DNA of 64,000 nt from IMG/VR virus record IMGVR_UViG_2858635475_000003, positions 1,400-65,399 of that record, one strand, 5' to 3'. Below are positions 3,922-39,555 of the stretch, one piece after another. The notes beneath the pieces are model-generated. The model saw nothing but the letters and a program-made list of their open reading frames with translations, was not told the origin of the DNA and searched no databases. Both the position numbers and the translations under genes were made by a program. The stretch's first letter is position 1. Each line of letters starts with the position of its first letter. This DNA is from a virus.

Positions 3922-6039
3922 TCAACAATTTGTTGATTTTGTAAACGACGAAAGATAGAGATCGAGCGCTGTTTCCCGCTTTCCCCATCCCATGTTCCTG
4001 AGAATTTCGTAGGCTTCTTCGATGTAGCGCTCATGATCCACGTCCGCGGGCACAAACAGATCGTCCGGCAATGTCATGATTGGCCGGCAGCCGTCTGACC
4101 TCGAAACCTTGGCTCGGTTGCCGGTCTTGGCGTGCGGCTTGCCGCGCATGATCGGAGCACCGTCCTTCGCCCAATAGAACCGAACCGTTTTGCCGAGATA
4201 TTGACCGTTCCAGTCGCCGCCGCCCTTGGCCTTGATGACACGGACAAACCCGCGCACGTCAGGGTAATTCCGGATGAAATCCTCGATCGGAATGCCGTCA
4301 ACCAGAAATGCCAGGATCGCATCTCCGCACACCGTCATGTTCGGGTTCTTTTTCATTTGCTCGAACGACGGGCTGTATTCGGGAGAATCCTTCATCAGGA
4401 ATTTGCGCAAACCCTCGAGCTCGATCCCGGCCAGGAGCGGGTCGTCTTCCTTCAGTTTGTTCCGCCAGTGGTTCGCAATGTACCCCTTGCGCTTGGCCTT
4501 ACCATCGGGCTTGATCGCCAGGTAGAAGTTGACATCGCGGTTATAGATCGCCTTGTATTCAGCACCTTCGAGGATGAAACTTGTCGTGTTTTCCCACCAC
4601 TCGATAAGTTCTTTGAGGAAGCCGCCTGCCGGCCGGTCGCCCTTCATCCCTTCGTAAAGACGACGCGGTATCTTCATGACCACGCCGTCAGTGTTCGCCG
4701 AGACGATCCGGATACCGGCAAGTTCTGCGCGCTCGATCAGCATCAACAATGTTAGCTGACCGGTCAGCGTCGTAGCAATCATCAGGTGTGGAGCAAACAG
4801 AACGCTGTAACGGCTCCCGAGCTTGCCATATGGACCGTTCAGACCAACCTTTCGGCCATCCGACCGAACCTTGAAGAATAGTTCTTTCTCGCGGTCGCCG
4901 GCATCACGAGCGTCGTTCGAACGCTTCTTGTCTGCCATGCGCTCGGCTTTAATGCCGCCGTAGACAGGCTGGAATTTTGGGCCGACCGCTTTCGGGTAAA
5001 GGCCGAGCTTCAGGATGATAGAAGGGTACTGAGAGCCTACGTCGAAGTCGACAAGCTGCCAGTCGTCATCCGACTCCTCGACGCGGCATTTTTCCTGCGA
5101 ATGCAATCCGCCGATACCGAGCTTGTAGGTGGACTGCCCGATCTCGATCTTGAACTTTTTGAATTCGTCGGGGAACGGCACAGAGCCTGTGTCGGTGACC
5201 TCGATATCGGTCTCTCGAATGACCTTCAAAACGTTCTGTAGCAGCGGCGTTTTGAACTCTATGAAGTCGGGAACCTGGTATCGAAACTTGTAGCCGCCCT
5301 TGAACTTGGCTTTCTGAACCTGCTTTTTGATAAGACGCTCGACGCCGATCTTGATCATGCGCTCGCCCGTTTGCGCGTCAGACAGAGAGCGGGCATCGAT
5401 CCCGTAGATTTCGCCGATCGACTCGCGAAGTTCGAGCGCCTGTTTGCAATGTGAGTAAAGATTTGCGGTCGCGGGGCAGTCCGAATTTCGGCAATAGTCG
5501 TTCAGTACGTCCATCTCGTCGTGGGTGAGATCGGCATCGGGGTCTACGGGCAGGTCTTGGAGGCGCTTCGCGTGCAAGCGACCTGCAAGCGTCTTGAGGC
5601 TCGCACTACCAGAGGCGAAAACGTTCTCCTGCTCGTCGTCATCATCGGCACCGGTTCCAACGGAAGGGTTAGTGTCGAAAAGATCGATGTGATCCACGTA
5701 GGACGGAACGACGATCCCAAACTCGCGCTCGCAGTCCCACGGTTTTTTCCGCTTTTTGATAATCCAGTCAGAGAGTGCCTTCAGGTCCGCATTGCTCGCA
5801 CCGTTGAGCGCGTACAGCAGAACCATCATGTCGTAGTCCCGGCTATTGAAGCCGACCACAGTATACTTCTTGAGAATGCGCCTCACGCGCAGCGGATCGA
5901 AATCAGCGCGCTCGCTACGCTCGTAACCGATCGACCGGCCGTCCTCGGTCAGGAATGCTACATAGAAGTAATTCCGGTAGCATTCCAAGTCGAAGAAGGC
6001 GATCGGCCGCTCAGTTTTTGTCCTGACTTCTCTGGCCAT
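3922..6039 (-). CDS. DNA polymerase, family B-like, with 3'-5' exonuclease domain
   Basis: Exo I FFDLE near the N-terminus. Motif A-like DVGSQYPSIIL (cf. DxxSLYPSII) and motif C-like SANTDGV (cf. YGDTDS), in the canonical order. Confidence 0.75.
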   Translation of the reverse strand: MAREVRTKTERPIAFFDLECYRNYFYVAFLTEDGRSIGYERSERADFDPLRVRRILKKYTVVGFNSRDYDMMVLLYALNGASNADLKALSDWIIKKRKKPWDCEREFGIVVPSYVDHIDLFDTNPSVGTGADDDDEQENVFASGSASLKTLAGRLHAKRLQDLPVDPDADLTHDEMDVLNDYCRNSDCPATANLYSHCKQALELRESIGEIYGIDARSLSDAQTGERMIKIGVERLIKKQVQKAKFKGGYKFRYQVPDFIEFKTPLLQNVLKVIRETDIEVTDTGSVPFPDEFKKFKIEIGQSTYKLGIGGLHSQEKCRVEESDDDWQLVDFDVGSQYPSIILKLGLYPKAVGPKFQPVYGGIKAERMADKKRSNDARDAGDREKELFFKVRSDGRKVGLNGPYGKLGSRYSVLFAPHLMIATTLTGQLTLLMLIERAELAGIRIVSANTDGVVMKIPRRLYEGMKGDRPAGGFLKELIEWWENTTSFILEGAEYKAIYNRDVNFYLAIKPDGKAKRKGYIANHWRNKLKEDDPLLAGIELEGLRKFLMKDSPEYSPSFEQMKKNPNMTVCGDAILAFLVDGIPIEDFIRNYPDVRGFVRVIKAKGGGDWNGQYLGKTVRFYWAKDGAPIMRGKPHAKTGNRAKVSRSDGCRPIMTLPDDLFVPADVDHERYIEEAYEILRNMGWGKRETALDLYLSSFTKSTNC

Positions 6040-10290: not shown

Positions 10291-12747
10291 ATGCTCCATG
10301 AAATTGAACCATTTGCGCGAGCAGGTTTTGCGATCCACTGGCTGCACCCGAAATCCAAGCGGCCGATCGGCAACGATTGGGCTTCGAAGCCAGTAAAGAC
10401 GCTGGACCAACTGCGCAGCAGCTACGAGGCCGGCGTATCCGGTAAAAACGTTGGCGTGAGACTCGGCAAGTGGTCGAAGGTCGGTTCCGATTTCCTGCTC
10501 GTCATCGATGTCGACATCCGCAAGCCGGAACTGGCGAAAGAAGCCTTTGCAGAACTAAAGCGCCTGTTTCCGGAATACGCGACGTATCCATCCGTGATCT
10601 CGGGATCGGGCGGCGCGAGCCGGCATTTCTACATCCTGACATCTCGTGAGTTCCCGTCGAAGCAGTTGGCTCACTCTGCACACCAATCCCTCGTTTGGGA
10701 TGAGAAGCAGCAGAAGGACGTGAAAAAGTGGGATTGGGAGATCGAGCTTTTCGGCACCGGCAAACAGGTTGCCATGCCGCCATCGATCCACCCGATCACC
10801 GGCAAACCCTATGTTTGGGAGCGCCCGTTCGACCTGGACGACCTCGATCTTGGCTTGGGTCCGTTCGTTGATTCGGATTACGTTGCCTCGCTAATCGACT
10901 ATGACGAGGAACGCGAGAACGCACCGGTCAATCCTGATGCCATTGAACCGCTCGGACTGACACCGGATCAGGTGCGCGAGATGTTGTCGAAGATCCCGAA
11001 TGAGGATTTCGACTACGAGGAATGGCTGAACGTCATGGCCTCTGTCCAGCATGAAGCGCAGGGACACCCTCTCTCGATCCGCAAGCAATTCTACGAGGTG
11101 TTTCGCGAGTGGTCAGCGAAATCATCCAAGCACGACGACGAGACGACCAAGGCCAAATACAAGAGCTTCAAGAACAGCCCGAACCGCAGGCAGCGCACGA
11201 TGCGCTCCATTCAGGCGCAGGTCCGCGAGATCGAGCTTGACGAGCAAATGGACGACCTCGGCGATGAGATTGATGATCTCGGGCCCGAGGAAGATGAGGA
11301 CGACGACGGCGAATTCGATGACGTGCTCGGCGGCGACCCCGACAAGCCGTCGAAACGAGAAATCAGACTGCGCAAGGCCGAGGTCGAGCACGCCTTCGGC
11401 ATTGTCCCGAAGCGCATCCAGCGCCTGAACGCAAAGCACGCCGTCACGTTTTTGAGCGGCAAGTGCGTGATTATCACCGAAAATTCTGACGGAACCACCT
11501 CTTACGGCACCCCCGGTGAGCTTCATAATTGGTACGAGAATGATCGCGTGGCGAGTGAGAAGGCCACGCAGCCTGTGTCAAAAGCCTGGATGCAGCATAA
11601 GGGGCGGCGCCAGTACCCGAACGGTGTCGTGTTCTCTCCTGGCAAGGAGCGGGACGGTTACTTCAACCACTGGAAAGGGTTCGATGTGGAGCCCGACCCC
11701 AAGGGTTCATGTCAAATGTGGCTGGACCACCTGCGCGAGATCATCTGTAACGGCAATGAAACGCACTACCGCTATGCGCTCGGCTGGTTCGCCCACATGA
11801 TCCAGAAGCCTTGGGAGAAACCAGGTGTCGCCATGGTGCTCCGCGGCAAAAAGCGGATCGGTAAGGATACGATCGCCGACTACTTCGCCGGCCTGATCAA
11901 GCGGTATCACGTCACGGTAGCAAATCAGGACCAGATGGTCGGCAAGTTCAATGCCCATCAGGAACGGTGCCTGCTTCTCCACGTGCAAGAAGGTTTTTGG
12001 GCCGGTAATAAGCAGGCCGAGGGTTCGCTGAAATACCTGATCACGTCCACCTCGGTGCTGATCGAGCCCAAGAGCGTCAACGCCTTTACGGTCGACAGTT
12101 ACCTGCGCCTTTTCATCTCGTCGAACGAAGATTGGGTGGTGCCAGCCACCGCGGACGAAGGCCGGTATTTTGTTCTCGACGTTTCCGACAAGCGAAAAGA
12201 CGACCACAAGTATTTCGGCGCGATGAAGCGCGAGATGATGAATGGCGGTCTGGAAGCCCTGCTCCACTACCTACAGAATTACGATCTCAGCAAGTTCGAG
12301 GTCCGCAAGGTGCCGGATACCAACGCGCTGGCCGATCAGAAAATCCAAGGCTTGAAGAACCTCGACAAATGGTGGTTCTCGATGCTCGAATCCGGCGAGC
12401 CCGAATTTGAATTCCAGAACATCAAGGGTATCGTTGCCGACTGGAATACGGAATCGATCGTTGTCGACCGAGACGATTTTCGCAATGTCTATTCAGCCTG
12501 GATGCGACACCAGCGTTATGACGGCAGTGAGCTTGTGAAATTCATGATCGGCAAGCGTCTGCGCGAACTGTGCCCGCAGATCGAGGACAGGCGGCGCCGG
12601 GACGGCGCGAAGCAGATTTGGACCTACGTGATTCCGAGCCTGCCGCAGTGCCGAGCGGAGTTCAGTAAATTCATGAATTCCGAGATCAAGTGGGAGACCA
12701 CTGATGTGCCTGAGATTATTCTGGAAGACGATTTCGACGATTTATAA
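10291..12747 (+). CDS. bifunctional primase-polymerase / D5-P4-type helicase
   Basis: PrimPol motifs (LLVIDVDIRKPE; SGSGGASRHFYIL). C-terminal P-loop NTPase (MVLRGKKRIGKDT). Ends EDDFDDL*. Confidence 0.8.
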   Translation: MLHEIEPFARAGFAIHWLHPKSKRPIGNDWASKPVKTLDQLRSSYEAGVSGKNVGVRLGKWSKVGSDFLLVIDVDIRKPELAKEAFAELKRLFPEYATYPSVISGSGGASRHFYILTSREFPSKQLAHSAHQSLVWDEKQQKDVKKWDWEIELFGTGKQVAMPPSIHPITGKPYVWERPFDLDDLDLGLGPFVDSDYVASLIDYDEERENAPVNPDAIEPLGLTPDQVREMLSKIPNEDFDYEEWLNVMASVQHEAQGHPLSIRKQFYEVFREWSAKSSKHDDETTKAKYKSFKNSPNRRQRTMRSIQAQVREIELDEQMDDLGDEIDDLGPEEDEDDDGEFDDVLGGDPDKPSKREIRLRKAEVEHAFGIVPKRIQRLNAKHAVTFLSGKCVIITENSDGTTSYGTPGELHNWYENDRVASEKATQPVSKAWMQHKGRRQYPNGVVFSPGKERDGYFNHWKGFDVEPDPKGSCQMWLDHLREIICNGNETHYRYALGWFAHMIQKPWEKPGVAMVLRGKKRIGKDTIADYFAGLIKRYHVTVANQDQMVGKFNAHQERCLLLHVQEGFWAGNKQAEGSLKYLITSTSVLIEPKSVNAFTVDSYLRLFISSNEDWVVPATADEGRYFVLDVSDKRKDDHKYFGAMKREMMNGGLEALLHYLQNYDLSKFEVRKVPDTNALADQKIQGLKNLDKWWFSMLESGEPEFEFQNIKGIVADWNTESIVVDRDDFRNVYSAWMRHQRYDGSELVKFMIGKRLRELCPQIEDRRRRDGAKQIWTYVIPSLPQCRAEFSKFMNSEIKWETTDVPEIILEDDFDDL

Positions 12748-12812
12748 TCAACTGTTTGTTGATTATGTAAACTGCTTGGGGTATGGTCATCGCAGTCACA
12801 AAGGAGATTGCG

Positions 12813-14219
12813 ATGACAGTTACTGGAAAAGATTTGATTGCGGCGGGCGCCGTGCCTGGAAAGTGGTTTCCGGAAGCTCTGCGTCTGATAAACGAAGAAG
12901 GTCTGACCATTCCGCAAGCGGTCGCGAGATGCGAACCCGCTCCTGCGTTGCCCCTGAGCCCCGCCCATTCGAAACCGATTTACGAAAACATCCGGTCCGA
13001 GAATGAGGCCGAAATGGCGAATGTTCTGGCCGTAAAACGCACTATGCAAGAAGTGATGCGCACGCCGGTCACGATCGCAGGCGCGATTATGCCAGATGCT
13101 TGCCCTGCCGGCCCGCTCGGAACGATTCCTGTCGGAGGCATCGTATCATCGACCGAAATCCATCCCGGTATGCATTCCGCCGACATCTGCTGCTCAATGG
13201 CAATCACTATCTTCGACGCCGCGGCGGATCCGAAAGAGCTTCTCGATGCTGTGAAAGAGGTTACCCACTTCGGACCAGGCGGTCGTCAGTTCGGCAACCA
13301 TGCGCTGAAAGCGGGAGAGTTTCGAGGCATCACTGACAGCGACAACCCCTTTCTTCAGGAGGCGAAAAAGTTGGCCTCGTCACATTTTGCCACACAAGGT
13401 GACGGAAACCATTTTGCCTATGTCGGGCGAATGAAGTCGGACGGTAAGGTTGCATTGGTGACCCACCACGGCTCTCGCGGTCCCGGCGCTATGCTCTACA
13501 AAGCAGGCATGCGGGTGGCCGAAAAGAACACTCGCGAAGTCTCACCTGAGACCCTGAAACAGAACGCCTGGATCAAGTCCGACAGCCGCGACGGCGAGCT
13601 TTATTGGGACGCCTTACAACATATCCGCAGGTGGACCAAAGCCAGCCATTTCCAAATCCATGACGATGCGGCGAAACTGTACCGTATGAACGTCAAGTCG
13701 GCCGGCTTCCGCACTCTGATGATCGAAGATCGATTTTGGAACGAGCACAACTTCGTTTTCAGGAAAAGCGATGGATTTTTCTATCACGCAAAGGGCGCGA
13801 CCCCTGCCTTCCTCAATTGGGCTGATGATGCCGGCGATCGAACCATCATTCCCTTGAACATGGGTGAGCCGATCTTGATTGTGCGCGGGCGCGATGCGCC
13901 CCATTCACTCGGGTTCTCGCCTCACGGCGCCGGCCGAAACTTCTCCCGCACTCAACACAAGCGTCTTATGGAGGGTCGCACCGACGAGGAAATCTTTGCC
14001 GAAGAAACCGCTCACATCGATGCACGCTTCTTCCTGGGCATCACCGATATTTCAGAGTTGCCGAGCGCATACAAAAACGCAGCGGCAGTGCGGGCGCAGA
14101 TCAACGAGTTCGGTCTGGCCGATATCGTTGATGAGGTGATCCCGTATGGCTGCATTATGGCCGGCGACTGGGAGCGGGATGCACCATGGAAGAAATCGCG
14201 GAAAGGCGGTGAAGCATGA
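12813..14219 (+). CDS. rtcB: RtcB-family RNA 3'-phosphate ligase
   Basis: RtcB signature blocks GDGNHF, HHGSRG and HGAGR. ATG at 12813 has an AAGGAG SD; an alternative upstream start at 12783 lies nearer the dyad motif. Confidence 0.85.
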   Translation: MTVTGKDLIAAGAVPGKWFPEALRLINEEGLTIPQAVARCEPAPALPLSPAHSKPIYENIRSENEAEMANVLAVKRTMQEVMRTPVTIAGAIMPDACPAGPLGTIPVGGIVSSTEIHPGMHSADICCSMAITIFDAAADPKELLDAVKEVTHFGPGGRQFGNHALKAGEFRGITDSDNPFLQEAKKLASSHFATQGDGNHFAYVGRMKSDGKVALVTHHGSRGPGAMLYKAGMRVAEKNTREVSPETLKQNAWIKSDSRDGELYWDALQHIRRWTKASHFQIHDDAAKLYRMNVKSAGFRTLMIEDRFWNEHNFVFRKSDGFFYHAKGATPAFLNWADDAGDRTIIPLNMGEPILIVRGRDAPHSLGFSPHGAGRNFSRTQHKRLMEGRTDEEIFAEETAHIDARFFLGITDISELPSAYKNAAAVRAQINEFGLADIVDEVIPYGCIMAGDWERDAPWKKSRKGGEA

Positions 14220-14922: not shown

Positions 14923-15158
14923 AACTCCGCTGGGAGAAGCAGCCAAGTGTCCGCGGCGAGTCCTGGTTCGCCTACAGCGGCAAGCTGGTGATCGGCATGG
15001 TCGTCGAGCGTGATGATCGGACCATCGGCTACACCATGCATGCCGTCCATATGAAGTGGATTGGTAAGGGCTACGGAGAAGTCGCCTCGATCCAGTCTGG
15101 CAAGCGGGCGATCGAACGTGGGTGGCGCCAGTGGCTCACGGCAGCGGGATTGGTGTGA
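14919..15158 (+). CDS. hypothetical protein
   Basis: ATGA-coupled ORF; 79 aa. Confidence 0.45.
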   Translation: MKLRWEKQPSVRGESWFAYSGKLVIGMVVERDDRTIGYTMHAVHMKWIGKGYGEVASIQSGKRAIERGWRQWLTAAGLV

Positions 15159-15436
15159 TGGTCGCAAAACCAAAAACCCCATTGAGATGGTTCCCGGTCA
15201 TCCAAGAGCGCGCTGATTACAATGGGCGCTTTCCTGAAGACGACTTCCGCGCCTACCGAAAATTCTCGGTATGGCCGATCTCGTTTGCCACCCGCGCCGA
15301 ATGTGACGAGTTCATTTTCAGCACCTTCACGTTCGCCAACCTGCCACGCGCACGGAAGCGTTCGGTATCTTCGATGAACCAGGCGCAGCTTCGGAATGTG
15401 AACGTGCCAGGGCAGCCTTATCGGAGGTACGTGTGA
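15158..15436 (+). CDS. hypothetical protein
   Basis: TGATG-coupled; start at the internal Met (MVAKPKTPLRW). Confidence 0.45.
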   Translation: MVAKPKTPLRWFPVIQERADYNGRFPEDDFRAYRKFSVWPISFATRAECDEFIFSTFTFANLPRARKRSVSSMNQAQLRNVNVPGQPYRRYV

Positions 15437-15825
15437 TGCCGTTGACCAAACAGCAGATCGCCATCAAATGCTACTACGAGGGCCGGCGCAAACCGAAACG
15501 CCCGCCCCGTGACAAGATCGTGCTCGACGGCAAGGTCAAACTCACACCGCGGCGCCGTGAAATCCTGTTCCATATCGCTTTCACCGATGGCGTCCGGTGG
15601 CGGGAGGAACGCGATTGGAGCAATCGGTGGGAGAACCACCGCATCTTCGTTCCATATCTCGGTGAGACCTGCATCACGTCGATCGTCCAGTACCTGAAGC
15701 GGTGCCGGCTGATCGCTTGGCCCAAGGAAGGTGGTCATCCTTATCGACTGTCGTCCGTTCCGCCCATCTATCTCGTCATCCCTCGGGGTATGGATGCGCT
15801 TCTCGAATGCGTGGAGGGTTTGTGA
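15436..15825 (+). CDS. hypothetical protein
   Basis: Coupled ORF; 129 aa. Confidence 0.5.
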   Translation: MPLTKQQIAIKCYYEGRRKPKRPPRDKIVLDGKVKLTPRRREILFHIAFTDGVRWREERDWSNRWENHRIFVPYLGETCITSIVQYLKRCRLIAWPKEGGHPYRLSSVPPIYLVIPRGMDALLECVEGL

Positions 15826-15859
15826 TGAAGTGCTCATACTGCGGCAAGCCAGGGCACCC

Positions 15860-17002
15860 TTATTCGCCCGCTGGAACCGCAAGCTTGGCGCCGCCCATAT
15901 CCAGAGCAGGAAGTCCTTGATCCGTTTGCAACATCTTCGCCTTGGAGAGAGCAGTGACGCGGGGTCGAACGATTCTACGATATAGCCAATCTTCGGCTAT
16001 CCCGAAAAGGACACCTCCCGTGAGGCTGACCGTAATCATTATCGTAAATCGTTGAACCTCAGTGAGCGACGAGGTCATTTCTCCGACCAGAAAAATGATC
16101 GGGAAGTGGATTAGATATATCCCATACGACCAGCTACCCATCGAATTAATGTGTTTGGACACACGGTCGATCGGGTTCCTGATATTCGAAGCCGAATAGG
16201 TGATCCCAAGGCACGTGACAAGCAACAAGAATTGCCACAGAAACTGGTGCCGTTGTGCGAGTATGGTTACCACGCCCACCAAGGTCAGGAACACGCTCAG
16301 CGGGCCGTGCCTACCCTGTTTGGCAAGCGCCAGAAGCGCACCGCCGATGAAATACAAACCATAAGGGGACTGCCACACCATGGCCCCGAACAAACCATCA
16401 GGTGGCTCGGGAAAATTCGGGTACACGTAAAGAAGGGTTGCCGCCCACGCAACCATGAGCCAACCGTAAAACTGCCGCGGCATCAACATGATCAACGCGG
16501 TGATGAAGTAGAAATAGACCTCAAAATTCAACGTCCAGTACGGAACGCCGCTCCAACTGGCGTGTGATTTGCCCATCGGAAGCAAAAGAATGGAAGGGTC
16601 GAAAGAAATCTGTTCAGGTCGCACAGTCCCTCCCCCGACCATCATTGCGGTCCCGAGGACAAGAGCCACAAGATAACCGGGGTAAATGCGAGCAAGACGA
16701 AGGGTGATGAATGTGTTGACGCTAGAATGACGGGTCAGACACATAACGTAACCCGATATCACGAAGAAAATTAGCACTCCGACATTGCCAACATTCAGCG
16801 TCAGCCAATATTGATTGACAGGTTCCCACGGTCCATGTGGATTGGCCGGCGACGACCAGGCGAAAAGTGACGCGTGGAAGACAAGAACCAGGAGAGCGGT
16901 GCAAAATCTAAGACCTTGAATGCCGACGAGTTTACCGTCCCCCGCGCTCTTACCGTAATCCCCTATTGCCAAAGTCCCGCCTCCCGAGCCATTTATTAGC
17001 AT
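15860..17002 (-). CDS. acyltransferase family 3 membrane protein (candidate O-antigen/LPS acetyltransferase, lysogenic-conversion moron)
   Basis: Acyltransferase_3 N-terminal signature (GLRFCTALLVLVFHAS) and about 10 predicted TM helices. Oppositely oriented to the flanking phage genes. Confidence 0.75.
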   Translation of the reverse strand: MLINGSGGGTLAIGDYGKSAGDGKLVGIQGLRFCTALLVLVFHASLFAWSSPANPHGPWEPVNQYWLTLNVGNVGVLIFFVISGYVMCLTRHSSVNTFITLRLARIYPGYLVALVLGTAMMVGGGTVRPEQISFDPSILLLPMGKSHASWSGVPYWTLNFEVYFYFITALIMLMPRQFYGWLMVAWAATLLYVYPNFPEPPDGLFGAMVWQSPYGLYFIGGALLALAKQGRHGPLSVFLTLVGVVTILAQRHQFLWQFLLLVTCLGITYSASNIRNPIDRVSKHINSMGSWSYGIYLIHFPIIFLVGEMTSSLTEVQRFTIMITVSLTGGVLFGIAEDWLYRRIVRPRVTALSKAKMLQTDQGLPALDMGGAKLAVPAGE

Positions 17003-17138
17003 TTTGAAATGAAGTGCGCCTGATGATTGCGCCAGTCAAGAGCTTCTAACCTGAAGTGTGTACCTCGGTGATCACGAGGTCAGCAGGTGTTGTGAAGAAG
17101 CCGCAACATCCTTGCTTGCCTCGCAAGGTGCCGACAGT

Positions 17139-17696
17139 CTAAGCCCCAAGCACGTCCTCGAATTGAGCCATAGGGTTGGTGCGGCCATAAACTCTGAAAT
17201 TCACGTTACCGACCTTCCGTTCAAGACCGGTCGGCTGCCACCCGCCTTTTGTGAATGCCCGCTCAATCTTTCGGATTGGGCTCGCGTGCTCCCGCGACAA
17301 TCCGTTTGGGTCGACGCCAAAAAGGTTCTGCAAGACTGCCGCTGCGGTTATGGTGTGGCGCCGCGACTTTAGGAACTCGCGAACAAGCTTCTGATCCACA
17401 TTCCCAATGTCAAGCGGTTCTATGACCGATGCTTGATGGCCGGAAGGATAGTACATCCAATGTTGACGACCATCGATCCGTGCTCTGTCGCCACCCTTAA
17501 GCCATCCGCAATATGTCGACAGCACTATGCTCATTCGGTGCGCAACGTGCACGTCGTATTCGCTTGGGTCGCAACCAAGTGCTTCAACCCAAACCTGCTC
17601 GCAATAAGTTACGTCCTTGTCGCGCAGCCATTCTCGGATCTTATGAACCTGTTCGGATAGCTCCGACGTGTGATTAAGGGTCTTCATTTTTCTCAT
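17139..17696 (-). CDS. hypothetical protein ending QFEDVLGA
   Basis: 185 aa with no recognised domain. C-terminal F-E-D-V-L-G-A joins the recurrent tail-motif family. Lies next to the iteron region. Confidence 0.55.
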   Translation of the reverse strand: MRKMKTLNHTSELSEQVHKIREWLRDKDVTYCEQVWVEALGCDPSEYDVHVAHRMSIVLSTYCGWLKGGDRARIDGRQHWMYYPSGHQASVIEPLDIGNVDQKLVREFLKSRRHTITAAAVLQNLFGVDPNGLSREHASPIRKIERAFTKGGWQPTGLERKVGNVNFRVYGRTNPMAQFEDVLGA

Positions 17697-17784
17697 CTCG
17701 AACCTCTTTCGGTCAGGCAGTGAGATAAGTAAGGCAGAAATCCCGTGAAGTCAACTGTTTGTGGATTTTGGTTTGTTGAAAAGT

Positions 17785-18113
17785 CTCCTTATCTCACTTC
17801 CATGGTATCTTACACGTCCTTATCTCATTTTTTTCTCAGCAAGCTTCTGTAATTATTGAAGTTGTGACATTTTGAGATAGAGGAGATAAGGGAGATAAGG
17901 AGTTTTATTGCTCAGCAGAACAGACCGATTTTTTGCACACTTAGGTAGGTGCCTTTCCACTGGTTGGGTGGAGCATTCTTGTCGCCCTACACGGAAAACT
18001 CCTTATCTCATTTATCTACTCTATCTCAAAATGTCACTTATATAATAAAAACAATATGTTAAAAGAAAAAAAGTGAGATAAGGACGAGATAAGGAGGGGG
18101 TTTTGAGATAAGG
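17785..18113. repeat. AT-rich nested inverted iteron array, (T)GAGATAAGG / CCTTATCTC x >=11, plus 17-bp inverted repeat GTGACATTTTGAGATAG (17864-17880 / 18019-18035)
   Basis: Read directly. Copies point outward-inward symmetrically around a roughly 85-bp GC-richer core (17903-17985). Confidence 0.8.
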
Positions 18114-18293
18114 AGATTTTCGAAATCAGCGATTTTTTCCGAAAAACGGCAGTTTCGTAACGCTTAGAACCCTTCGGGCCAATTTCAGGGCCAAAATTTT
18201 TCCAAAAACTCTCGCAAGCCGGGGCTCGGCGCCCTCCGCACTGCGTTATTTCGATCGAGAGGGACCCGTAGCGCCTTGATAACGCTCATCTTT

Positions 18294-18500
18294 TCAAACG
18301 TAACGGTATGACGACAAGCCCGCGCTAACGCTATGTGAAGCTAACGCAATGAGGCCATCACATGTTACGTTCAGGTCGGTATGACAAGAATTGCATAAAC
18401 CCGTAACATGTGACGGTCTCGGTATGACAAGAAAGGTTTGCTTACCCACGGCGCATAAGTCCACAAACGGTTGACTATCTAACGCTATGACTGTATGAAA
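18294..18500. repeat. palindrome/direct-repeat cluster (CACATGTTACG..CGTAACATGTG inverted repeat; GGTATGACAAG x3; GCTAACGC x3)
   Basis: Read directly. Immediately upstream of the first plus-strand gene of the accessory cluster. Confidence 0.7.
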
Positions 18501-18525
18501 AGGATATGCGAAACGGATTGTCCAT

Positions 18526-19083
18526 ATGAACGGCGTAGGTACCAATCGAGCTATGGCGCTAAAGAAGGGGTTACCCTTCTATACCGGCAAGCAATGCTCT
18601 CAATGCCTGCAGCATAAGAAGCGGACGCACGATAAATGGTGTGCGGTATGCTACGATCTAGGGGACTTGAATTGGCAGTTAGCCCGCGCATGGGACCATG
18701 CCACACGCTCCCATATCAACGCCTTGGCACGCGCTCGATACCAGGCAAAGAAGGCGCATAACCCCGTCTTGTCTCTATATCTCAGAACATTCGAAACAGT
18801 CACCACAGTCACCACAAAGAAAGGAACTACCATGGCAACCGCATGCCCAAACAAAGCCAATGCCAGGAAGGCGGGCCGCAAGACTTACGGCACGGGAATA
18901 GCGTGTGAAGAATGCGACACTGATAGGCGCTATGTGGTGAGCGGCAATTGCGTGGAATGCGCCCGCGTATCAGCCAAGGCTTATCGCAAGACGCCTGCAG
19001 CACAAGAGGCGAACCGTGAACGGCAGGCCCGCTATAGGGCGCGCCAGTTGGCAAAGAAAATAGGTCTCCTTGATGATATTTAA
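18526..19083 (+). CDS. double zinc-ribbon protein (candidate regulator)
   Basis: Two C-x2-C-x12-C-x2-C units (CSQCLQHKKRTHDKWCAVC; CEECDTDRRYVVSGNCVEC) with a basic C-terminus. First gene after the repeat region, preceded by a dyad motif. Confidence 0.5.
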   Translation: MNGVGTNRAMALKKGLPFYTGKQCSQCLQHKKRTHDKWCAVCYDLGDLNWQLARAWDHATRSHINALARARYQAKKAHNPVLSLYLRTFETVTTVTTKKGTTMATACPNKANARKAGRKTYGTGIACEECDTDRRYVVSGNCVECARVSAKAYRKTPAAQEANRERQARYRARQLAKKIGLLDDI

Positions 19084-19163
19084 CCTGCCCCCATAATCAA
19101 CAAACAGTTGACTATTGCGTAACGCTGTGAGATAACAGACTCAACGAAACGGAGACGAGACAA

Positions 19164-19445
19164 ATGGAAACTACCCGTAAGAAAATCGGTCCTTTTTCCT
19201 TCACCTTTCGCGGGAACGTCGCATGGTGGAGTTATCGAAAAAAGCATTTCGGGACTTTGATTAAGGCAAGCGGGCGCGACAATATCTCAACAGTCGACAA
19301 GCTCAAAGCCTTCTTTGATCCAGCATGCCAAATCTATGGCGCAGACGGACTTGAGACGTTTGTACGCTGGAACATGAGCGATATTCCAGGGGCGCTTCAT
19401 TGGGCGGAGCATTACACGCGCTGCCGCTCCTCGGTCATTCGCTAA
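19164..19445 (+). CDS. hypothetical protein
   Basis: ORF with an upstream dyad motif (19093-19116). Confidence 0.4.
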   Translation: METTRKKIGPFSFTFRGNVAWWSYRKKHFGTLIKASGRDNISTVDKLKAFFDPACQIYGADGLETFVRWNMSDIPGALHWAEHYTRCRSSVIR

Positions 19446-19472
19446 AACTCAACCATTTGGGGATATATCACC

Positions 19473-19751
19473 ATGACAACTATCCGCACCATAGACCCCG
19501 CCATTCGGGAACATATCACGGGCACGGCACGCGGGTTTGCCGCTCTTGGATTGCTGGCAGGCGCCGGCTTGGCGGCAATGCTGCCGGTCGTTCTGCCGCT
19601 TGAACGCGATCGCACTTATGACCTTGTACAAGTGTCGCCAGACGGCGAGTCCGATATCGTCGATTATAATTTGAGTGCGACGGATTGCGGTTTTCTGAAA
19701 GAACGCCTGCAGGCTGCCGGTTATGAAATGCTGTGCGAACGCACGCGCTAA
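19473..19751 (+). CDS. hypothetical protein
   Basis: Dyad motif plus GGGGA directly upstream of the ATG. Confidence 0.4.
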   Translation: MTTIRTIDPAIREHITGTARGFAALGLLAGAGLAAMLPVVLPLERDRTYDLVQVSPDGESDIVDYNLSATDCGFLKERLQAAGYEMLCERTR

Positions 19752-19772
19752 CAATCAACCATTTGGGGATTA

Positions 19773-20237
19773 ATGATCATGACGAAACAATCCTTTCCAC
19801 ACTTCGATTCCTTCGTTTGCGACGGCGACACTGTATCGCTTGAAATTGAGGGTTTCACCCTTACAGCCACAATCTACCGTGACGACGATTGCAGCGCGCC
19901 CAATAAGCGGCAAGACGGTTTCTGGCCGTCTCTTGATCCAAGTAATGACGGCTATATTGGCGCAAAGTCCAAATCAACGCTTGCCCGTCATATGGCGCGA
20001 GCCCGCGAAGTTTTGCGGTCATGGTGCGCTGATGAATGGTTTTATGTCGGCGTGGCCGTGACTGTCGAAAAAGACGGCGTGCAACTCACTGGCGACTATG
20101 ACCATGCGCTGTGGGGTATCGAATGCAATTACCCGTTTGGCCGCAATCCTAACCACTATCTGAGTTCAGTTGCGGACGATTATATCGGCGAAGCTCTTGA
20201 CGCGGCACGGGCAAAGATTGCCAAGTTGGCGGCGTAA
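19773..20237 (+). CDS. hypothetical protein
   Basis: Dyad motif plus GGGGA directly upstream; 154 aa. Confidence 0.5.
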   Translation: MIMTKQSFPHFDSFVCDGDTVSLEIEGFTLTATIYRDDDCSAPNKRQDGFWPSLDPSNDGYIGAKSKSTLARHMARAREVLRSWCADEWFYVGVAVTVEKDGVQLTGDYDHALWGIECNYPFGRNPNHYLSSVADDYIGEALDAARAKIAKLAA

Positions 20238-20256
20238 ATTATGGGGATTAACGACT

Positions 20257-20565
20257 ATGGACAAGCATCTCACACGTAATGAAAAGAAGCTCAAGAAATT
20301 GATGGAAGCGGCCCACAATGAGGCGCTTGGAATTTACATTGATGAGGCGCGCCGCGTATTGTGTCGTTGTGCAACACTCTCCCATCTGGTTGCCGCAATG
20401 GGTTCAGCTTTTTGGGTTGATAGAGACGGCGACATAATCCACGAAGAAAGCGACTTACCGGCAATCGCACGGCATTTCATGATGAACATGGAAGACACTT
20501 ATTACAGTTATTTTCGCTCACCTGGAATCAAGATTTATCGCGACCGCATCATAACGGACTGGTGA
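20257..20565 (+). CDS. hypothetical protein
   Basis: ATG at 20257 after a GGGGATTAAC box. Confidence 0.45.
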   Translation: MDKHLTRNEKKLKKLMEAAHNEALGIYIDEARRVLCRCATLSHLVAAMGSAFWVDRDGDIIHEESDLPAIARHFMMNMEDTYYSYFRSPGIKIYRDRIITDW

Positions 20566-20686
20566 GTTGCTCACCTAAAATCGTCACTCAATAATCAACA
20601 AACGGTTGACTAATGCATAACACTGTGAGATAACCGGAACAACGAAACAAGAGCGCGCCGCGCTGCCACACTGAGGAGTCAAGGGA

Positions 20687-21352
20687 ATGAGCAAACACCC
20701 GCTAGAAGCTGCGATTGAGGCCCACGGCATTACCATTAAGGCCGAATTCGTGCCGTTCTCAAAGTCGCGCAATGCCACGCGTGCCGACATAGACGGCAAG
20801 CCTTGGCTTTCGCTCAACTGGAAAGTGACGCTGCAGCGCAACGGGCGCGATATCCTTACAACGGATTACGGCGCGGGAGTCGCACATTGCCCCGGCTATG
20901 CCGCCAAGGTCGCGCCAACGCATTTTCAGGCTCACAGTTACCGCAATGCAAGCGGCAAGCCTTACCCCGGCACGACAAGCATGTATCGCACGGCAACCCC
21001 TGCAGAACGGCTTAATCAGTATCGGGAAGCGATTGCAGCGGCGGAATGTGAGTCGGGTTTCCCTATGGAAATCGATCCATGGGGTCGCGGTCCTGAAAAC
21101 GTCTTCAAGCGCAAAGCAAAGGGTGAACCGATTGAGCCCAAAGTTACGGACGTTGTGCATTCCCTCATCATGGATGCAAGCGTTCTCGATAGCGGCGGCT
21201 TTGAAGATTGGGCGGCTGATTTAGGATATGACACGGACTCGCGCAAAGCAGAGTCCACCTATCGGGAATGCCTAGAAATCGCGTTGAAGCTTCGGGCGGG
21301 GTTGGGCGAGGCCATCCTGTCTGAATTGCGGGAAGCCGCGCAAGATTATTGA
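20687..21352 (+). CDS. hypothetical protein
   Basis: 221 aa; dyad motif at 20591-20614. Confidence 0.5.
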   Translation: MSKHPLEAAIEAHGITIKAEFVPFSKSRNATRADIDGKPWLSLNWKVTLQRNGRDILTTDYGAGVAHCPGYAAKVAPTHFQAHSYRNASGKPYPGTTSMYRTATPAERLNQYREAIAAAECESGFPMEIDPWGRGPENVFKRKAKGEPIEPKVTDVVHSLIMDASVLDSGGFEDWAADLGYDTDSRKAESTYRECLEIALKLRAGLGEAILSELREAAQDY

Positions 21353-21384
21353 CCTATAAGTCAACTATTTGGGGATTTATCAAC

Positions 21385-21600
21385 ATGAAAAGACTCGATT
21401 ATTGGCAGGCCCGCACGTTGGCGTCGACATTCGGTTTCAATCCGCTCGAAGATTTCCACGCTATGAGCACGGCCAGCAAAGAAGCCGTCATTCGTGCGGC
21501 CGACTCGGTGAAATACCGCCAGCCCAAAAACTCAAACGGGAGTCGTGGGCGATACTTCGCTGCCTACATCCGCCGCCTTATCGAAAAAGGGGACATCTGA
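21385..21600 (+). CDS. hypothetical protein
   Basis: Motif GTCAACtatttGGGGAtttatcaacATG. Confidence 0.4.
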   Translation: MKRLDYWQARTLASTFGFNPLEDFHAMSTASKEAVIRAADSVKYRQPKNSNGSRGRYFAAYIRRLIEKGDI

Positions 21601-21601
21601 C

Positions 21602-22057
21602 ATGACAACCACTCTTGAAGCAATGCGCGCCGATAGTCCGGTTTCCGGTCACAGCGCCGAATGGCACTTTTTCCGCTCCTATGTCGGCACTGCCTTTTGG
21701 GCAACAAATGCCAATCCGGATGATTGGGAACCAATGGATCGCAACTATGATATCAGCGATCTAGCGCCCGCCACGCTCGAATCCATGCTTGCAGATTGCG
21801 CACGTTTCTATGACGCAAACAAAGCGCATATCCATTGCGATGGTGCACCATGGGCTACTGACGGCGACTATGGAACACAAGCCGCACGTGAAGCCGCCAT
21901 GGCAGGTCACGATTTTTGGCTAACCCGTTGCGGCCACGGTGCGGGCTTTTGGGATGGTGACTGGCCGGAACCGGCAGCGAGCGCGCTCACTGAGGCAAGT
22001 AAGGAATTCGGCAACGTCGATTTGTATGTCGGCGATGACGGGCAGATTTACGCCTGA
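21602..22057 (+). CDS. hypothetical protein
   Basis: AAGGGGA SD; 151 aa. Confidence 0.5.
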   Translation: MTTTLEAMRADSPVSGHSAEWHFFRSYVGTAFWATNANPDDWEPMDRNYDISDLAPATLESMLADCARFYDANKAHIHCDGAPWATDGDYGTQAAREAAMAGHDFWLTRCGHGAGFWDGDWPEPAASALTEASKEFGNVDLYVGDDGQIYA

Positions 22058-37956: not shown

Positions 37957-39555
37957 ATGACGACAATCACCCTGCACCCCGGCGATAACATTCTTTCAAT
38001 GAGAGGGATGGCGGAAAACAGCGTGCATAGCGTGGTGACAGACCCGCCGTATATGCTCACAAGCATCGTCAAGCGCTTTGGAAAAGAAGGTTCTGCGCCA
38101 GCCAAGACTTCTGGTAATGACGGTTCTTTTGCACGCCTTTCGGCTGGTTTCATGAACAAACAGTGGGACTCTCCAAGAGTGGAATTGCCGCCATTGAGTT
38201 CTGACTTCGGTCATTACATGGCAGGCTTGATTGACGGGGAAGGATGTTTTCATGTGCATCGGAAACTGGTAAACAACTGTGAGACCTACGACTGCCAATT
38301 TTCAATAACCCTCCGCTCTGATGACAAAGACATTCTCGTGGAGATGCAGCGCCAACTCGGCGGCATAGGCTCCTTGGCTCATCGGCCAGCGCGTGACAAC
38401 GCCAATAGCCAAGCGCGCTTCTGCATTAGCTCGAAAGCACATTGTCAGGTTCTACGGGCGGCTCTAAGCGTATTTCCATTGCGCGCAAAAAAGGCTCGTG
38501 ACTTTGAGATTTGGTGTCATGCACTTGATGCATGGGTCAATCACGAACCGAAATCCTCATGGGAAGACGTGTCTTTCTATCGTGACCAATTGATGATGGT
38601 GAAGCGTTTCGGAAGCCTCTATAAGCCCGAATTCCTTTTCCACTATCGTTGGGCCAAAGAAGCTTTCAGAGTTCTAAAACCAGGCGGCTGCATATTCGCC
38701 TTCTCCGGATCTCGCACTGGCCACTGGCAGGCAGCCGCCATGGAACTTGCAGGTTTTATCATGCATCCTATGCACGGTTGGTGTTTTGGATCTGGAATGC
38801 CGAAGCCTACCAATTTAAAAGGCGTTCCCGGTTACGAGGGGTGGGGTTATGGCACGCAAACACAGAAGCCTGCTCTGGAACCCATATACCTCGGTCAGAA
38901 GCCTTTCAGCGAAAAGACAGGTCCACTTAATGTTTTGAAGCACGGCGTGGGCGGTTTCAATCTTGAGGATTGTTCTGTCCCAAGTGCCAAGGGTGACCCC
39001 CGCCGACCCGCCAATCTGATCCTCGACGGCTCGCCGGAAGTGGTTGCGATGTTCCCTGACTCCAAAGGGCAGCAAGGCGCTGTGCGCGGCGATGAGCCTA
39101 GCGGTGTCACGAAGGATATCTACGGCAAGTTCAATGGCCGCGTTCCAGCGCCAGTCCGTGGTGACAGCGGTTCCGCAGCACGGTTCTTCCACCAGTTCGG
39201 ACCTGACGCCGACCCGCTGATCTATCACGGTAAAGCCGGCAAAACGGATCGCGCTGGCGGCAATCATCCCACGGTCAAGCCGATCGCCCTCATGAAGTAT
39301 CTCATCCGGCACATCACGCCACCTGGCGGCATTGTGCTCGACCCGTTCGCCGGCAGCGGCACCACAGGCGAAGCGGCGAAGCGTGAGGGCATGGACTGCA
39401 TTCTCATGGAAGCCGAGCCCGAATACATCGAATTTCTGGAAAAGCGGTTCGACATCGCAAAACCGGAGTTCGATTTCGACGACATCCTCGGCGAAGCTTT
39501 GCCGATCAAATCAACAAATAGTGGAGATACGTTTCATGACATTCTCGGTGCTTGA
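37957..39555 (+). CDS. beta-class (CcrM-type, DPPY) N6-adenine/N4-cytosine DNA methyltransferase with embedded LAGLIDADG domain and double DxxDILG tail
   Basis: Motif IV VVTDPPYML near the N-terminus and motif I LDPFAGSGTT near the C-terminus (beta order). Between them lies YMAGLIDGEGCF (LAGLIDADG). The C-terminus reads DFDDILGEALPIKSTNSGDTFHDILGA*. Confidence 0.8.
   Translation: MTTITLHPGDNILSMRGMAENSVHSVVTDPPYMLTSIVKRFGKEGSAPAKTSGNDGSFARLSAGFMNKQWDSPRVELPPLSSDFGHYMAGLIDGEGCFHVHRKLVNNCETYDCQFSITLRSDDKDILVEMQRQLGGIGSLAHRPARDNANSQARFCISSKAHCQVLRAALSVFPLRAKKARDFEIWCHALDAWVNHEPKSSWEDVSFYRDQLMMVKRFGSLYKPEFLFHYRWAKEAFRVLKPGGCIFAFSGSRTGHWQAAAMELAGFIMHPMHGWCFGSGMPKPTNLKGVPGYEGWGYGTQTQKPALEPIYLGQKPFSEKTGPLNVLKHGVGGFNLEDCSVPSAKGDPRRPANLILDGSPEVVAMFPDSKGQQGAVRGDEPSGVTKDIYGKFNGRVPAPVRGDSGSAARFFHQFGPDADPLIYHGKAGKTDRAGGNHPTVKPIALMKYLIRHITPPGGIVLDPFAGSGTTGEAAKREGMDCILMEAEPEYIEFLEKRFDIAKPEFDFDDILGEALPIKSTNSGDTFHDILGA

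Follow-up and report, generated by a model that had tools for sequence, protein, structure and literature searches.

A mirrored iteron array beside a putative cos site as the likely replication origin of a temperate relative of Rhizobium phage RHph_X2_30

Introduction

In the satellite phage P4, in which the alpha protein is paired with ori/crr iterons, ori and crr form separate loci. In lambdoid phages, the DNA-binding domain of the O protein and the iterons of ori-lambda are exchanged together between related phages as a specificity module (for context, see PMC7466680). Inverted protein-binding repeats are also a feature of lambda cosB, where they flank an IHF site (R3-I1-R2-R1). P4 alpha and other D5-family SF3 helicases bind the origin via a C-terminal winged helix (PMC4889955, PMC2777425), and the C-terminal domain of ORF904 of the archaeal plasmid pRN1 has been aligned to RFX and to 1ka8, the origin-binding domain of P4 alpha (PMC2777425). 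Iterons could not be found at the pRN1 origin (PMC2777425, PMC4234260). In the pri-rep origins of PICI/SaPI, two iteron sets flank an AT-rich presumed melting site, and the initiators occur as allelic variants (PMC6092414).

Here, we describe an iteron array in a 64,000-nucleotide stretch of viral DNA (the whole stretch is hereafter called the window). It differs from the P4 arrangement in several respects: the window primase is an archaeo-eukaryotic (AEP) Prim-Pol and not of the DnaG type of P4, the iterons form one compact palindromic array of 12 sites, the sole iteron cluster in 64 kb, instead of two separated loci, and the element is a 65-70-kb temperate siphophage instead of a satellite. 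By analogy, the array would work like P4 alpha, PICI and plasmid iteron origins, yet the AEP-type primase and the single array mean that it is not a strict P4 replicon. The window protein shares with pRN1 ORF904 the domain order Prim-Pol, SF3 helicase, C-terminal winged helix (PMC2777425), but in the window there are explicit iterons that co-vary with the domain. The likeness to PICI lies in the iteron sets flanking AT-rich DNA and in the initiator variants. However, the PICI origin is located immediately beside the rep gene, while that of the window would be 5 kb downstream (3 kb in RHph_X2_30), beside cos, and comprises two iteron/AT-rich units mirrored around a conserved core. In lambdoid phages the iterons reside inside the O gene as one block, whereas in the window family domain and array are 2-5 kb apart and change together. 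Finally, as in lambda cosB, inverted repeats flank an IHF(-like) site, at a distance of no more than about 100-150 bp from the nick (in the window, that of the putative cos), but cosB has three sites read by TerS, whereas the window has twelve sites and TerS does not appear to be their reader. In all, origins of this kind are known, the layout here being unusually tidy. What is particular here is the mirrored set of 4 × 3 sites about a conserved core, the constant adjacency to cos and the paired exchange of domain and iterons over 2-5 kb. The underlying mechanism would be the standard one of iterons plus initiator; hence, the general understanding is not changed and no new principle is involved.

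Results and Discussion

The window and its relatives

Judging from its sequence, the window is the genome of a temperate cos siphophage, or a prophage, related to Rhizobium phage RHph_X2_30 (MW980061, Casjensviridae, host Sinorhizobium americanum). The latter was the nearest deposited phage by protein, with primase-polymerases 58% identical, and carries lambda-like terminase, portal and capsid genes as well as an integrase. No DNA-level matches among deposited phages were obtained by megablast with 15000-22000 or by blastn with 17600-18550. The main gene features of the window are the following (position, strand, feature, basis):

Left end of the window, minus strand: SNF2 helicase (family search)
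3922-6039, minus strand: 705-aa ORF, 80% identical to and collinear with the RHph_X2_30 product annotated as DNA polymerase (protein comparison)
Left part of the window, minus strand: DUF2800 nuclease (family search)
10291-12747, plus strand: initiator candidate of 818 aa with Prim-Pol, PriCT-2, DUF5906 (D5/P4-type SF3 helicase) and a C-terminal domain (Pfam)
12388-12744, plus strand: C-terminal winged-helix domain of this protein, approximately aa 700-818, proposed iteron reader (predicted fold and co-variation)
12783-14219, plus strand: RtcB-like RNA ligase, directly after the primase-helicase (family search)
15860-17696, minus strand: acyltransferase-3 (O-antigen acetylase-like) moron and a 185-aa orphan gene, just left of the putative origin (family search)
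Right of the non-coding region, plus strand: early genes, including a HerA-like ATPase (family search)
Right part of the window, minus strand: tail and head genes (family search)

The gene for the RtcB-like ligase occurs in the window and in the related contig L003 and is absent from the other relatives examined. Homology between the window and L117 jumps the moron/orphan stretch (window 15862 to 18123, L117 14173 to 15557), and 15860-17696 may represent an insertion in the window. For the product of 17139-17696 we found no relatives in viral contigs and no family match; this variable protein was set aside as a possible iteron reader. At 37957-39555 (plus strand), a 532-aa product combines a LAGLIDADG homing endonuclease (aa 88-189) with an N6/N4 DNA methylase (aa 228-494).

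Anatomy of the array

An earlier note, made from the sequence by itself, had reported an AT-rich nested inverted iteron array, and this array is real. Exact copies of GAGATAAGG/CCTTATCTC number eight, all confined to 17787-18113, with none elsewhere in the 64 kb scanned; one-mismatch copies of GAGATAAGG outside the array are few and at chance level. The G+C content of the array region is 37.7% as compared to 55.4% for the window. Together with four degenerate 9-mers, the exact copies make up 12 sites in four triplets, disposed with mirror symmetry about a 100-bp core:

17722-17730, plus strand: outlying iteron GAGATAAGT, one mismatch (sequence reading)
17787-17795 and 17818-17826, minus strand: outer-left iterons, CCTTATCTC (sequence reading and repeat finder)
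17827-17873: left AT-rich spacer, 72% A+T, candidate melting/helicase-loading region
17874-17900, plus strand: inner-left triplet GAGATAGAG-GAGATAAGG-GAGATAAGG, abutting, with 9-bp spacing (sequence reading and repeat finder)
17901-18000: central core between the iterons, 100 bp, 47% G+C
18001-18027, minus strand: inner-right triplet, CCTTATCTC exact, then degenerate ATTTATCTA and CTCTATCTC (sequence and repeat finder)
18028-18074: right AT-rich spacer, 85% A+T, with an IHF-like match inside (composition)
18075, 18086 and 18105 (to 18113), plus strand: outer-right triplet, GAGATAAGG (sequence reading)

The middle copy of the outer-left triplet is present in relatives and decayed in the window. 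The core had been put at about 85 bp and has to be corrected to the 100 bp measured between the iterons. The 17-bp perfect inverted repeat noted before does exist, with one copy, GTGACATTTTGAGATAG, at 17864-17880, but its complement, CTATCTCAAAATGTCAC, is located at 18021-18037 and not at 18019-18035. This repeat sits within a longer imperfect one with 59-nt arms (17848-17906 and 17995-18053) that are 83% complementary and separated by 88 nt. As single-stranded DNA, 17840-18060 gives a fold of -47 kcal/mol (z = -9.2 vs shuffles). Conservation of the core among relatives is patchy (TTTT..GCACAC, CTTCCAC, TACACGGGAAA), and a core hairpin at 17955-17973 is not conserved in them. DnaA-box-like matches seen by eye in the core were too weak for a claim, and no tRNA, tmRNA or Rfam matches were found.

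The array occupies a non-coding, divergent intergenic region of 830 bp. It had been placed simply between the moron and the accessory cluster; the moron is indeed at its left, but the array is rather situated about 100 bp from the putative cos, in a large control region that starts where the replication operon ends and extends to the first early promoter.

A conserved layout with changing repeats

Loci of relatives were obtained by primpol-anchored searches of viral contigs, metagenomes and bacterial genomes, supplemented with contig look-ups for six homologues. We found that the layout triplet, AT-rich spacer, triplet, core, triplet, AT-rich spacer, triplet is kept in the loci of more than 15 relatives, the hosts of which include Sinorhizobium, Rhizobium, Bosea, Aureimonas and Roseibium. 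The core in these loci spans about 90-120 bp, in each half the outer triplet is inverted relative to the inner one, and the perfect 3-3-3-3 arrangement is found in L006 and L119. RHph_X2_30 possesses the same layout in the matching place, with a different 9-mer, GGTCCAAGG. Across the loci, the 9-mers differ (GAGAYARG, GGTCYAKG, GGTCCAAGG, GGTCAGGGT, GTAGGGACA, GGGTTGGC) and are distributed as follows:

GAGATAAGG/GAGACAGA/GAGACAAG (GAGAYARG): window, L003/L107, L005, L119, L120, L125, L103
GGTCTAGG/GGTCCAAG/GGTCCATG (GGTCYAKG): L004, L117, L123, L124
GGTCCAAGG: RHph_X2_30, L109
GGTCAGGGT: L006, L104
GTAGGGACA: L008/L105
GGGTTGGC: L106

A fixed scaffold combined with a changing short repeat is what would be expected of a site evolving together with one specific DNA-binding protein.

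Three loci were left out of this comparison. In L007, the primpol homologue belongs to a different integrative element beside a tRNA gene, without the array. In this element (L007 15470-15671), the homologue is 53% identical, the contig ends at the tRNA gene, and no such array is present in the 3.2 kb downstream; this integrative element is probably satellite-like. In L009 and L010, the similarity is limited to the Prim-Pol N-terminus and no clear 3-3-3-3 layout is seen in the repeat clusters. The contigs obtained by a DNA pattern scan with TTTTCC..AAAACTCTCGC were for the most part unrelated.

In some prophages the array is found upstream of the primase gene and in opposite orientation (L008/L105 6600-6940, L104 8335-8600, L110 6700-7020). 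A cos-like sequence lies beside it in L008 and L110; none was seen beside the L104 array. The short-read contigs of L124, L125 and L118 end inside or just before the iteron array, which suggests that the iteron repeats break assemblies. In L119, a tRNA-like sequence was seen by eye on the minus strand immediately left of the array (about 14010-14110).

The C-terminal winged helix of the primase-helicase as candidate reader

We found that the C-terminal domain is the sole patch of the primase-helicase gene that is replaced when the iteron family changes. Identities were compared separately for the helicase core (aa 420-690) and the C-terminus (the last ~120 residues):

Window and P0007/L117: helicase core 99%, C-terminus 38%, iterons different
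Window and L004: helicase core 90%, C-terminus 35%, iterons different
Window and L005: helicase core 79%, C-terminus 61%, same iteron family
RHph_X2_30 and L005: helicase core 96%, C-terminus 41%, iterons different

The borders of the exchange are sharp at the nucleotide level. Between L005 and RHph_X2_30, homology (85%) breaks off 360 nt short of the primpol stop codon and returns exactly at the stop; it then continues through about 1.5 kb of downstream genes (79-87%), is gone over the array and is back in the spacer toward cos. Similarly, homology between the window and L117 (89%) ends at 12365 and returns at 12741, the downstream genes being 91-95% identical and the sequence right of the array 92% identical. 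Within the array of this pair, the core and AT spacer are partly retained, the iteron positions are not. Domain and array thus form two separate replaced patches and were not swapped as one block. Their joint exchange over 2-5 kb points to selection for cognate pairs.

The class of the C-terminus also predicts the array. For this, the C-terminal class was assigned first and the array DNA was fetched afterwards, and the prediction was correct in six cases out of six. Class B proteins P0007, P0009 and P0011, with C-termini 52-72% identical mutually and to L004 and 36-38% identical to the window, belong to GGTCYAKG arrays; class A proteins P0010, P0012 and P0014, with C-termini 60-72% identical to the window, belong to GAGAYARG arrays. 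P0009 and P0013 stem from prophages of R. nepotum and S. meliloti, respectively. The co-variation screen covered proteins in roughly ±10-kb loci, plus TerS. Taking each ORF's best-scoring match in the ±10-kb loci, no other shared gene was closer to L005 than to L004. For the first early protein (product of 18526-19083), identity to L003, a locus with the same iterons, is only 58%.

Cognate specificity of domain and iterons is suggested by the co-variation in three near-isogenic pairs, along with the two replaced patches and the six predictions. In distant pairs sharing an 8-mer, winged-helix identity is not raised (L109 vs RHph_X2_30 36%, L104 vs L006 34%, against a background of ~30-40%), and only a few wing residues are in common; the co-variation therefore rests on closely related lineages. 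A homology search with the C-terminal domain by itself yielded two matches, and a full-length search was used instead.

As for the protein itself, Pfam recognizes Prim-Pol, PriCT_2 and DUF5906 in the product of 10291-12747, the helicase part of which matches the NrS-1 primase C-terminal region (E = 7e-7). AlphaFold2 modelling of residues 680-818 with an 83-sequence alignment predicted a strand-helix-helix-hairpin winged-helix topology (pLDDT 82). The best PDB matches in Foldseek were the DNA-binding domains of RFX5 and RFX1 (probability 1.00 and 0.99); next came winged helices of Orc1/Cdc6 and ORC in complex with origin DNA. At the sequence level, no match to 1ka8 was found. The predicted winged-helix fold, with its modest scores, supports a role of this domain as reader without proving it.

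The putative cos site

A putative cleavage region of cos, based on the ends of the linear RHph_X2_30 record, was located right of the array:

18216-18239: aagccggggct followed directly by cggcgccctccgc

The RHph_X2_30 record ends with aaaactctcgcg and starts with cggcgcccccgc; about 11 nt that are present between these sequences in every relative separate the two ends. In the window, these ~11 extra nt are aagccggggct (18216-18226). The flanks, CCGGGG(T)CTCGGCGCCCCCGC and GGGACCCGTAGCG, are conserved in all iteron classes. Assembled contigs tend to begin and end at cos, and 3' overhangs are lost during end repair (PMC5557969). From the record ends, the missing ~11 nt and this behavior of assemblies, we infer a cos that is located roughly 100 bp right of the array, is not part of it and has a 3' overhang of ~10-11 nt.

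The array as an origin and the alternatives

We consider it likely that the array is the iteron-type replication origin of the phage, or the main cis site of initiator assembly, since the 9-bp iterons and the DNA-binding tail of the primase-helicase vary in concert. The earlier proposal of an iteron origin with an AT-rich unwinding element, the first of two options given, is supported, as the repeats co-vary with the winged helix of the primase-helicase across many relatives and not with TerS; the AT-rich element, in turn, would correspond to the two spacers and not to the central core. That the core is not AT-rich (47% G+C) was counted against the origin reading, as was the resemblance of the triplet/IHF-like-spacer/triplet units beside cos to lambda cosB (R3-I1-R2). 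GC skew, which had been suggested as a check, has no inflection at the array and follows gene orientation.

From these observations a mechanism can be proposed, in which physical binding, melting of the spacers, any involvement of IHF and firing of the origin are inferred steps. The 818-aa Prim-Pol/SF3-helicase protein (10291-12747) would read the 9-bp iterons (T)GAGATAAGG via its RFX-type C-terminal winged helix. Each inverted pair of outer and inner triplets would bracket an AT-rich spacer of ~45-47 bp, and initiator bound on both sides of the spacer would allow assembly of the SF3 helicase ring and melting there, possibly helped by a bend that host IHF introduces into the spacer. Priming would then fall to the Prim-Pol domain and extension to the phage DNA polymerase (3922-6039). 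The two triplet-spacer-triplet units face each other across the 100-bp core.

With regard to IHF, a perfect WATCAANNNNTTR was found in five spacers of relatives, on the minus strand in left spacers and on the plus strand in right ones, with scores equalled in 0 to 3 of 500 shuffles per spacer. In the window, the right spacer contains the IHF-like AAACAATATGTTA at 18049-18061, matching WATCAANNNNTTR in 8 of 9 positions, while the best match in the left spacer is 6 of 9. A role of IHF is therefore a hint at the level of the family and not a finding for this window.

The array and cos are ~100-135 bp apart in loci from several host genera and remain together also in the moved, inverted module of L008/L105. 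This raises the idea that origin and cos form one conserved ori-cos module, in which initiation would be mechanistically coupled to genome-end biology and the exchange of winged helix and iterons would act as a replicon-incompatibility or anti-interference system among co-resident prophages. We regard this extension as rather unlikely. If true, the initiator might, e.g., assemble on freshly circularised cos DNA or, when bound to the origin, gate the access of terminase.

Leaving such coupling aside, the origin reading has to be weighed against regulation. Initiators that bind iterons commonly autoregulate. Moreover, the outlying iteron at 17722-17730 lies between a -35-like TTGACT element (17749-17754, minus strand) and the start codon of the leftward gene 17139-17696, overlapping the probable -10 region of this gene, and the whole array is in a divergent intergenic region. 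It could then be an operator array, on which the winged helix or another DNA-binding protein mainly controls the divergent flanking genes or titrates the initiator. Yet, no sigma-70-like promoter was found within the array, and the likely promoters (CCACAAACNGTTGACT, 17749-17764 and 18461-18476) are outside of it; a sigma-70 promoter-like scan of 17600-18600 gave one match, at chance level and also outside (18381-18409). In addition, the left neighbor gene varies among relatives while the array is conserved, and twelve sites with AT-rich spacers exceed the needs of an operator. We therefore consider a mainly regulatory array quite improbable, though some autoregulation via the outlying iteron is possible alongside origin function.

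Packaging offers another explanation, namely that the triplets are cosB-like sites of the terminase small subunit, bent by IHF, that position terminase at cos. The array ends ~100 bp from the putative cos (itself deduced from the RHph_X2_30 record ends), the two stay adjacent even where the module has moved and reversed (L008/L105), and the inverted sites around an IHF-like sequence recall lambda R3-I1-R2. However, TerS of RHph_X2_30 and of the L005 phage (encoded on the same contig as L005) are 87% identical overall and 95-97% identical in the helix-turn-helix, although their iterons are different. TerS of window-like and L004-like phages is 83% identical with no N-terminal drop; here the contigs were paired indirectly, L003+L023 and L004+L025 being treated as single genomes because of their common metagenome and the sizes of the contigs. 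That TerS is nearly unchanged while the iterons differ argues that it is not the reader. The iterons track the primase-helicase C-terminus instead, and the GC-rich cos-proximal sequence is conserved across all iteron classes. Altogether, this makes cosB-like sites very unlikely.

It is highly improbable that the core is a gene for a small RNA or small peptide, with the repeats as its regulatory or terminator context: a 45-aa ORF is present at 17908-18045 and a 40-aa ORF is annotated over the RHph_X2_30 core, but the two are on opposite strands, Rfam gave no match, the RNAalifold consensus of eight cores amounts to -0.5 kcal/mol with essentially no covariation, and the core sequence is conserved only in patches. 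The recombination or invertible site also proposed in the earlier note, with the inverted arms as crossover or arm-type sites and the core flipping or being the crossover region, has next to no chance of being correct: despite the 59-nt imperfect arms around 88 nt, the core is oriented alike with respect to the cos-like sequence in 13 of 13 aligned loci, none of ten neighboring products scanned contains a Pfam recombinase domain, the RHph_X2_30 integrase is ~18 kb away, and the repeat family co-varies with a replication protein.

With the array read as an origin, a likely origin and its reader are located for temperate rhizobial phages and prophages (Casjensviridae-like, relatives of RHph_X2_30). 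The deposited RHph_X2_30 annotation has no origin marked, and a literature search by this phage name found no paper. The family would also constitute a natural specificity series, in which at least six different 9-mers occur on one scaffold and each has a winged-helix variant of its own as partner. Such a series could be used to study DNA reading by RFX-type winged helices and to develop orthogonal replicons in Rhizobium and Sinorhizobium.

A second repeat array and a promoter-like motif

Right of the putative cos, 18299-18490 contains a second array, in which a (C/G)TAACG(C/G)(T/A)ATGAC-like motif is repeated ~8 times, with copies in either orientation. Its last copy is positioned between a -35-like TTGACT (18471-18476) and the -10 region of the first early gene, and versions of this array are found in relatives: GATCACAGCGTTACG in about 12 copies in RHph_X2_30, AATCACAGT in L005 and GCGTCCGTTGTGCC in L006. 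It looks like an operator array for a repressor or activator of the early genes.

The 16-nt motif CCACAAACNGTTGACT occurs in 27 copies at up to three mismatches in the whole window, as compared to 1.6 expected. Examples are located at 17749-17764 (minus strand), 18461-18476, 19098-19113 and 20596-20611 (all plus strand). Several copies lie ~50 bp upstream of start codons, a placement as expected of a promoter that has a conserved element upstream. On the opposite strand, weaker copies (AxTCAACnnTTTGGGG) are found ~10 nt before the start codons at 19473, 19773 and near 21380.
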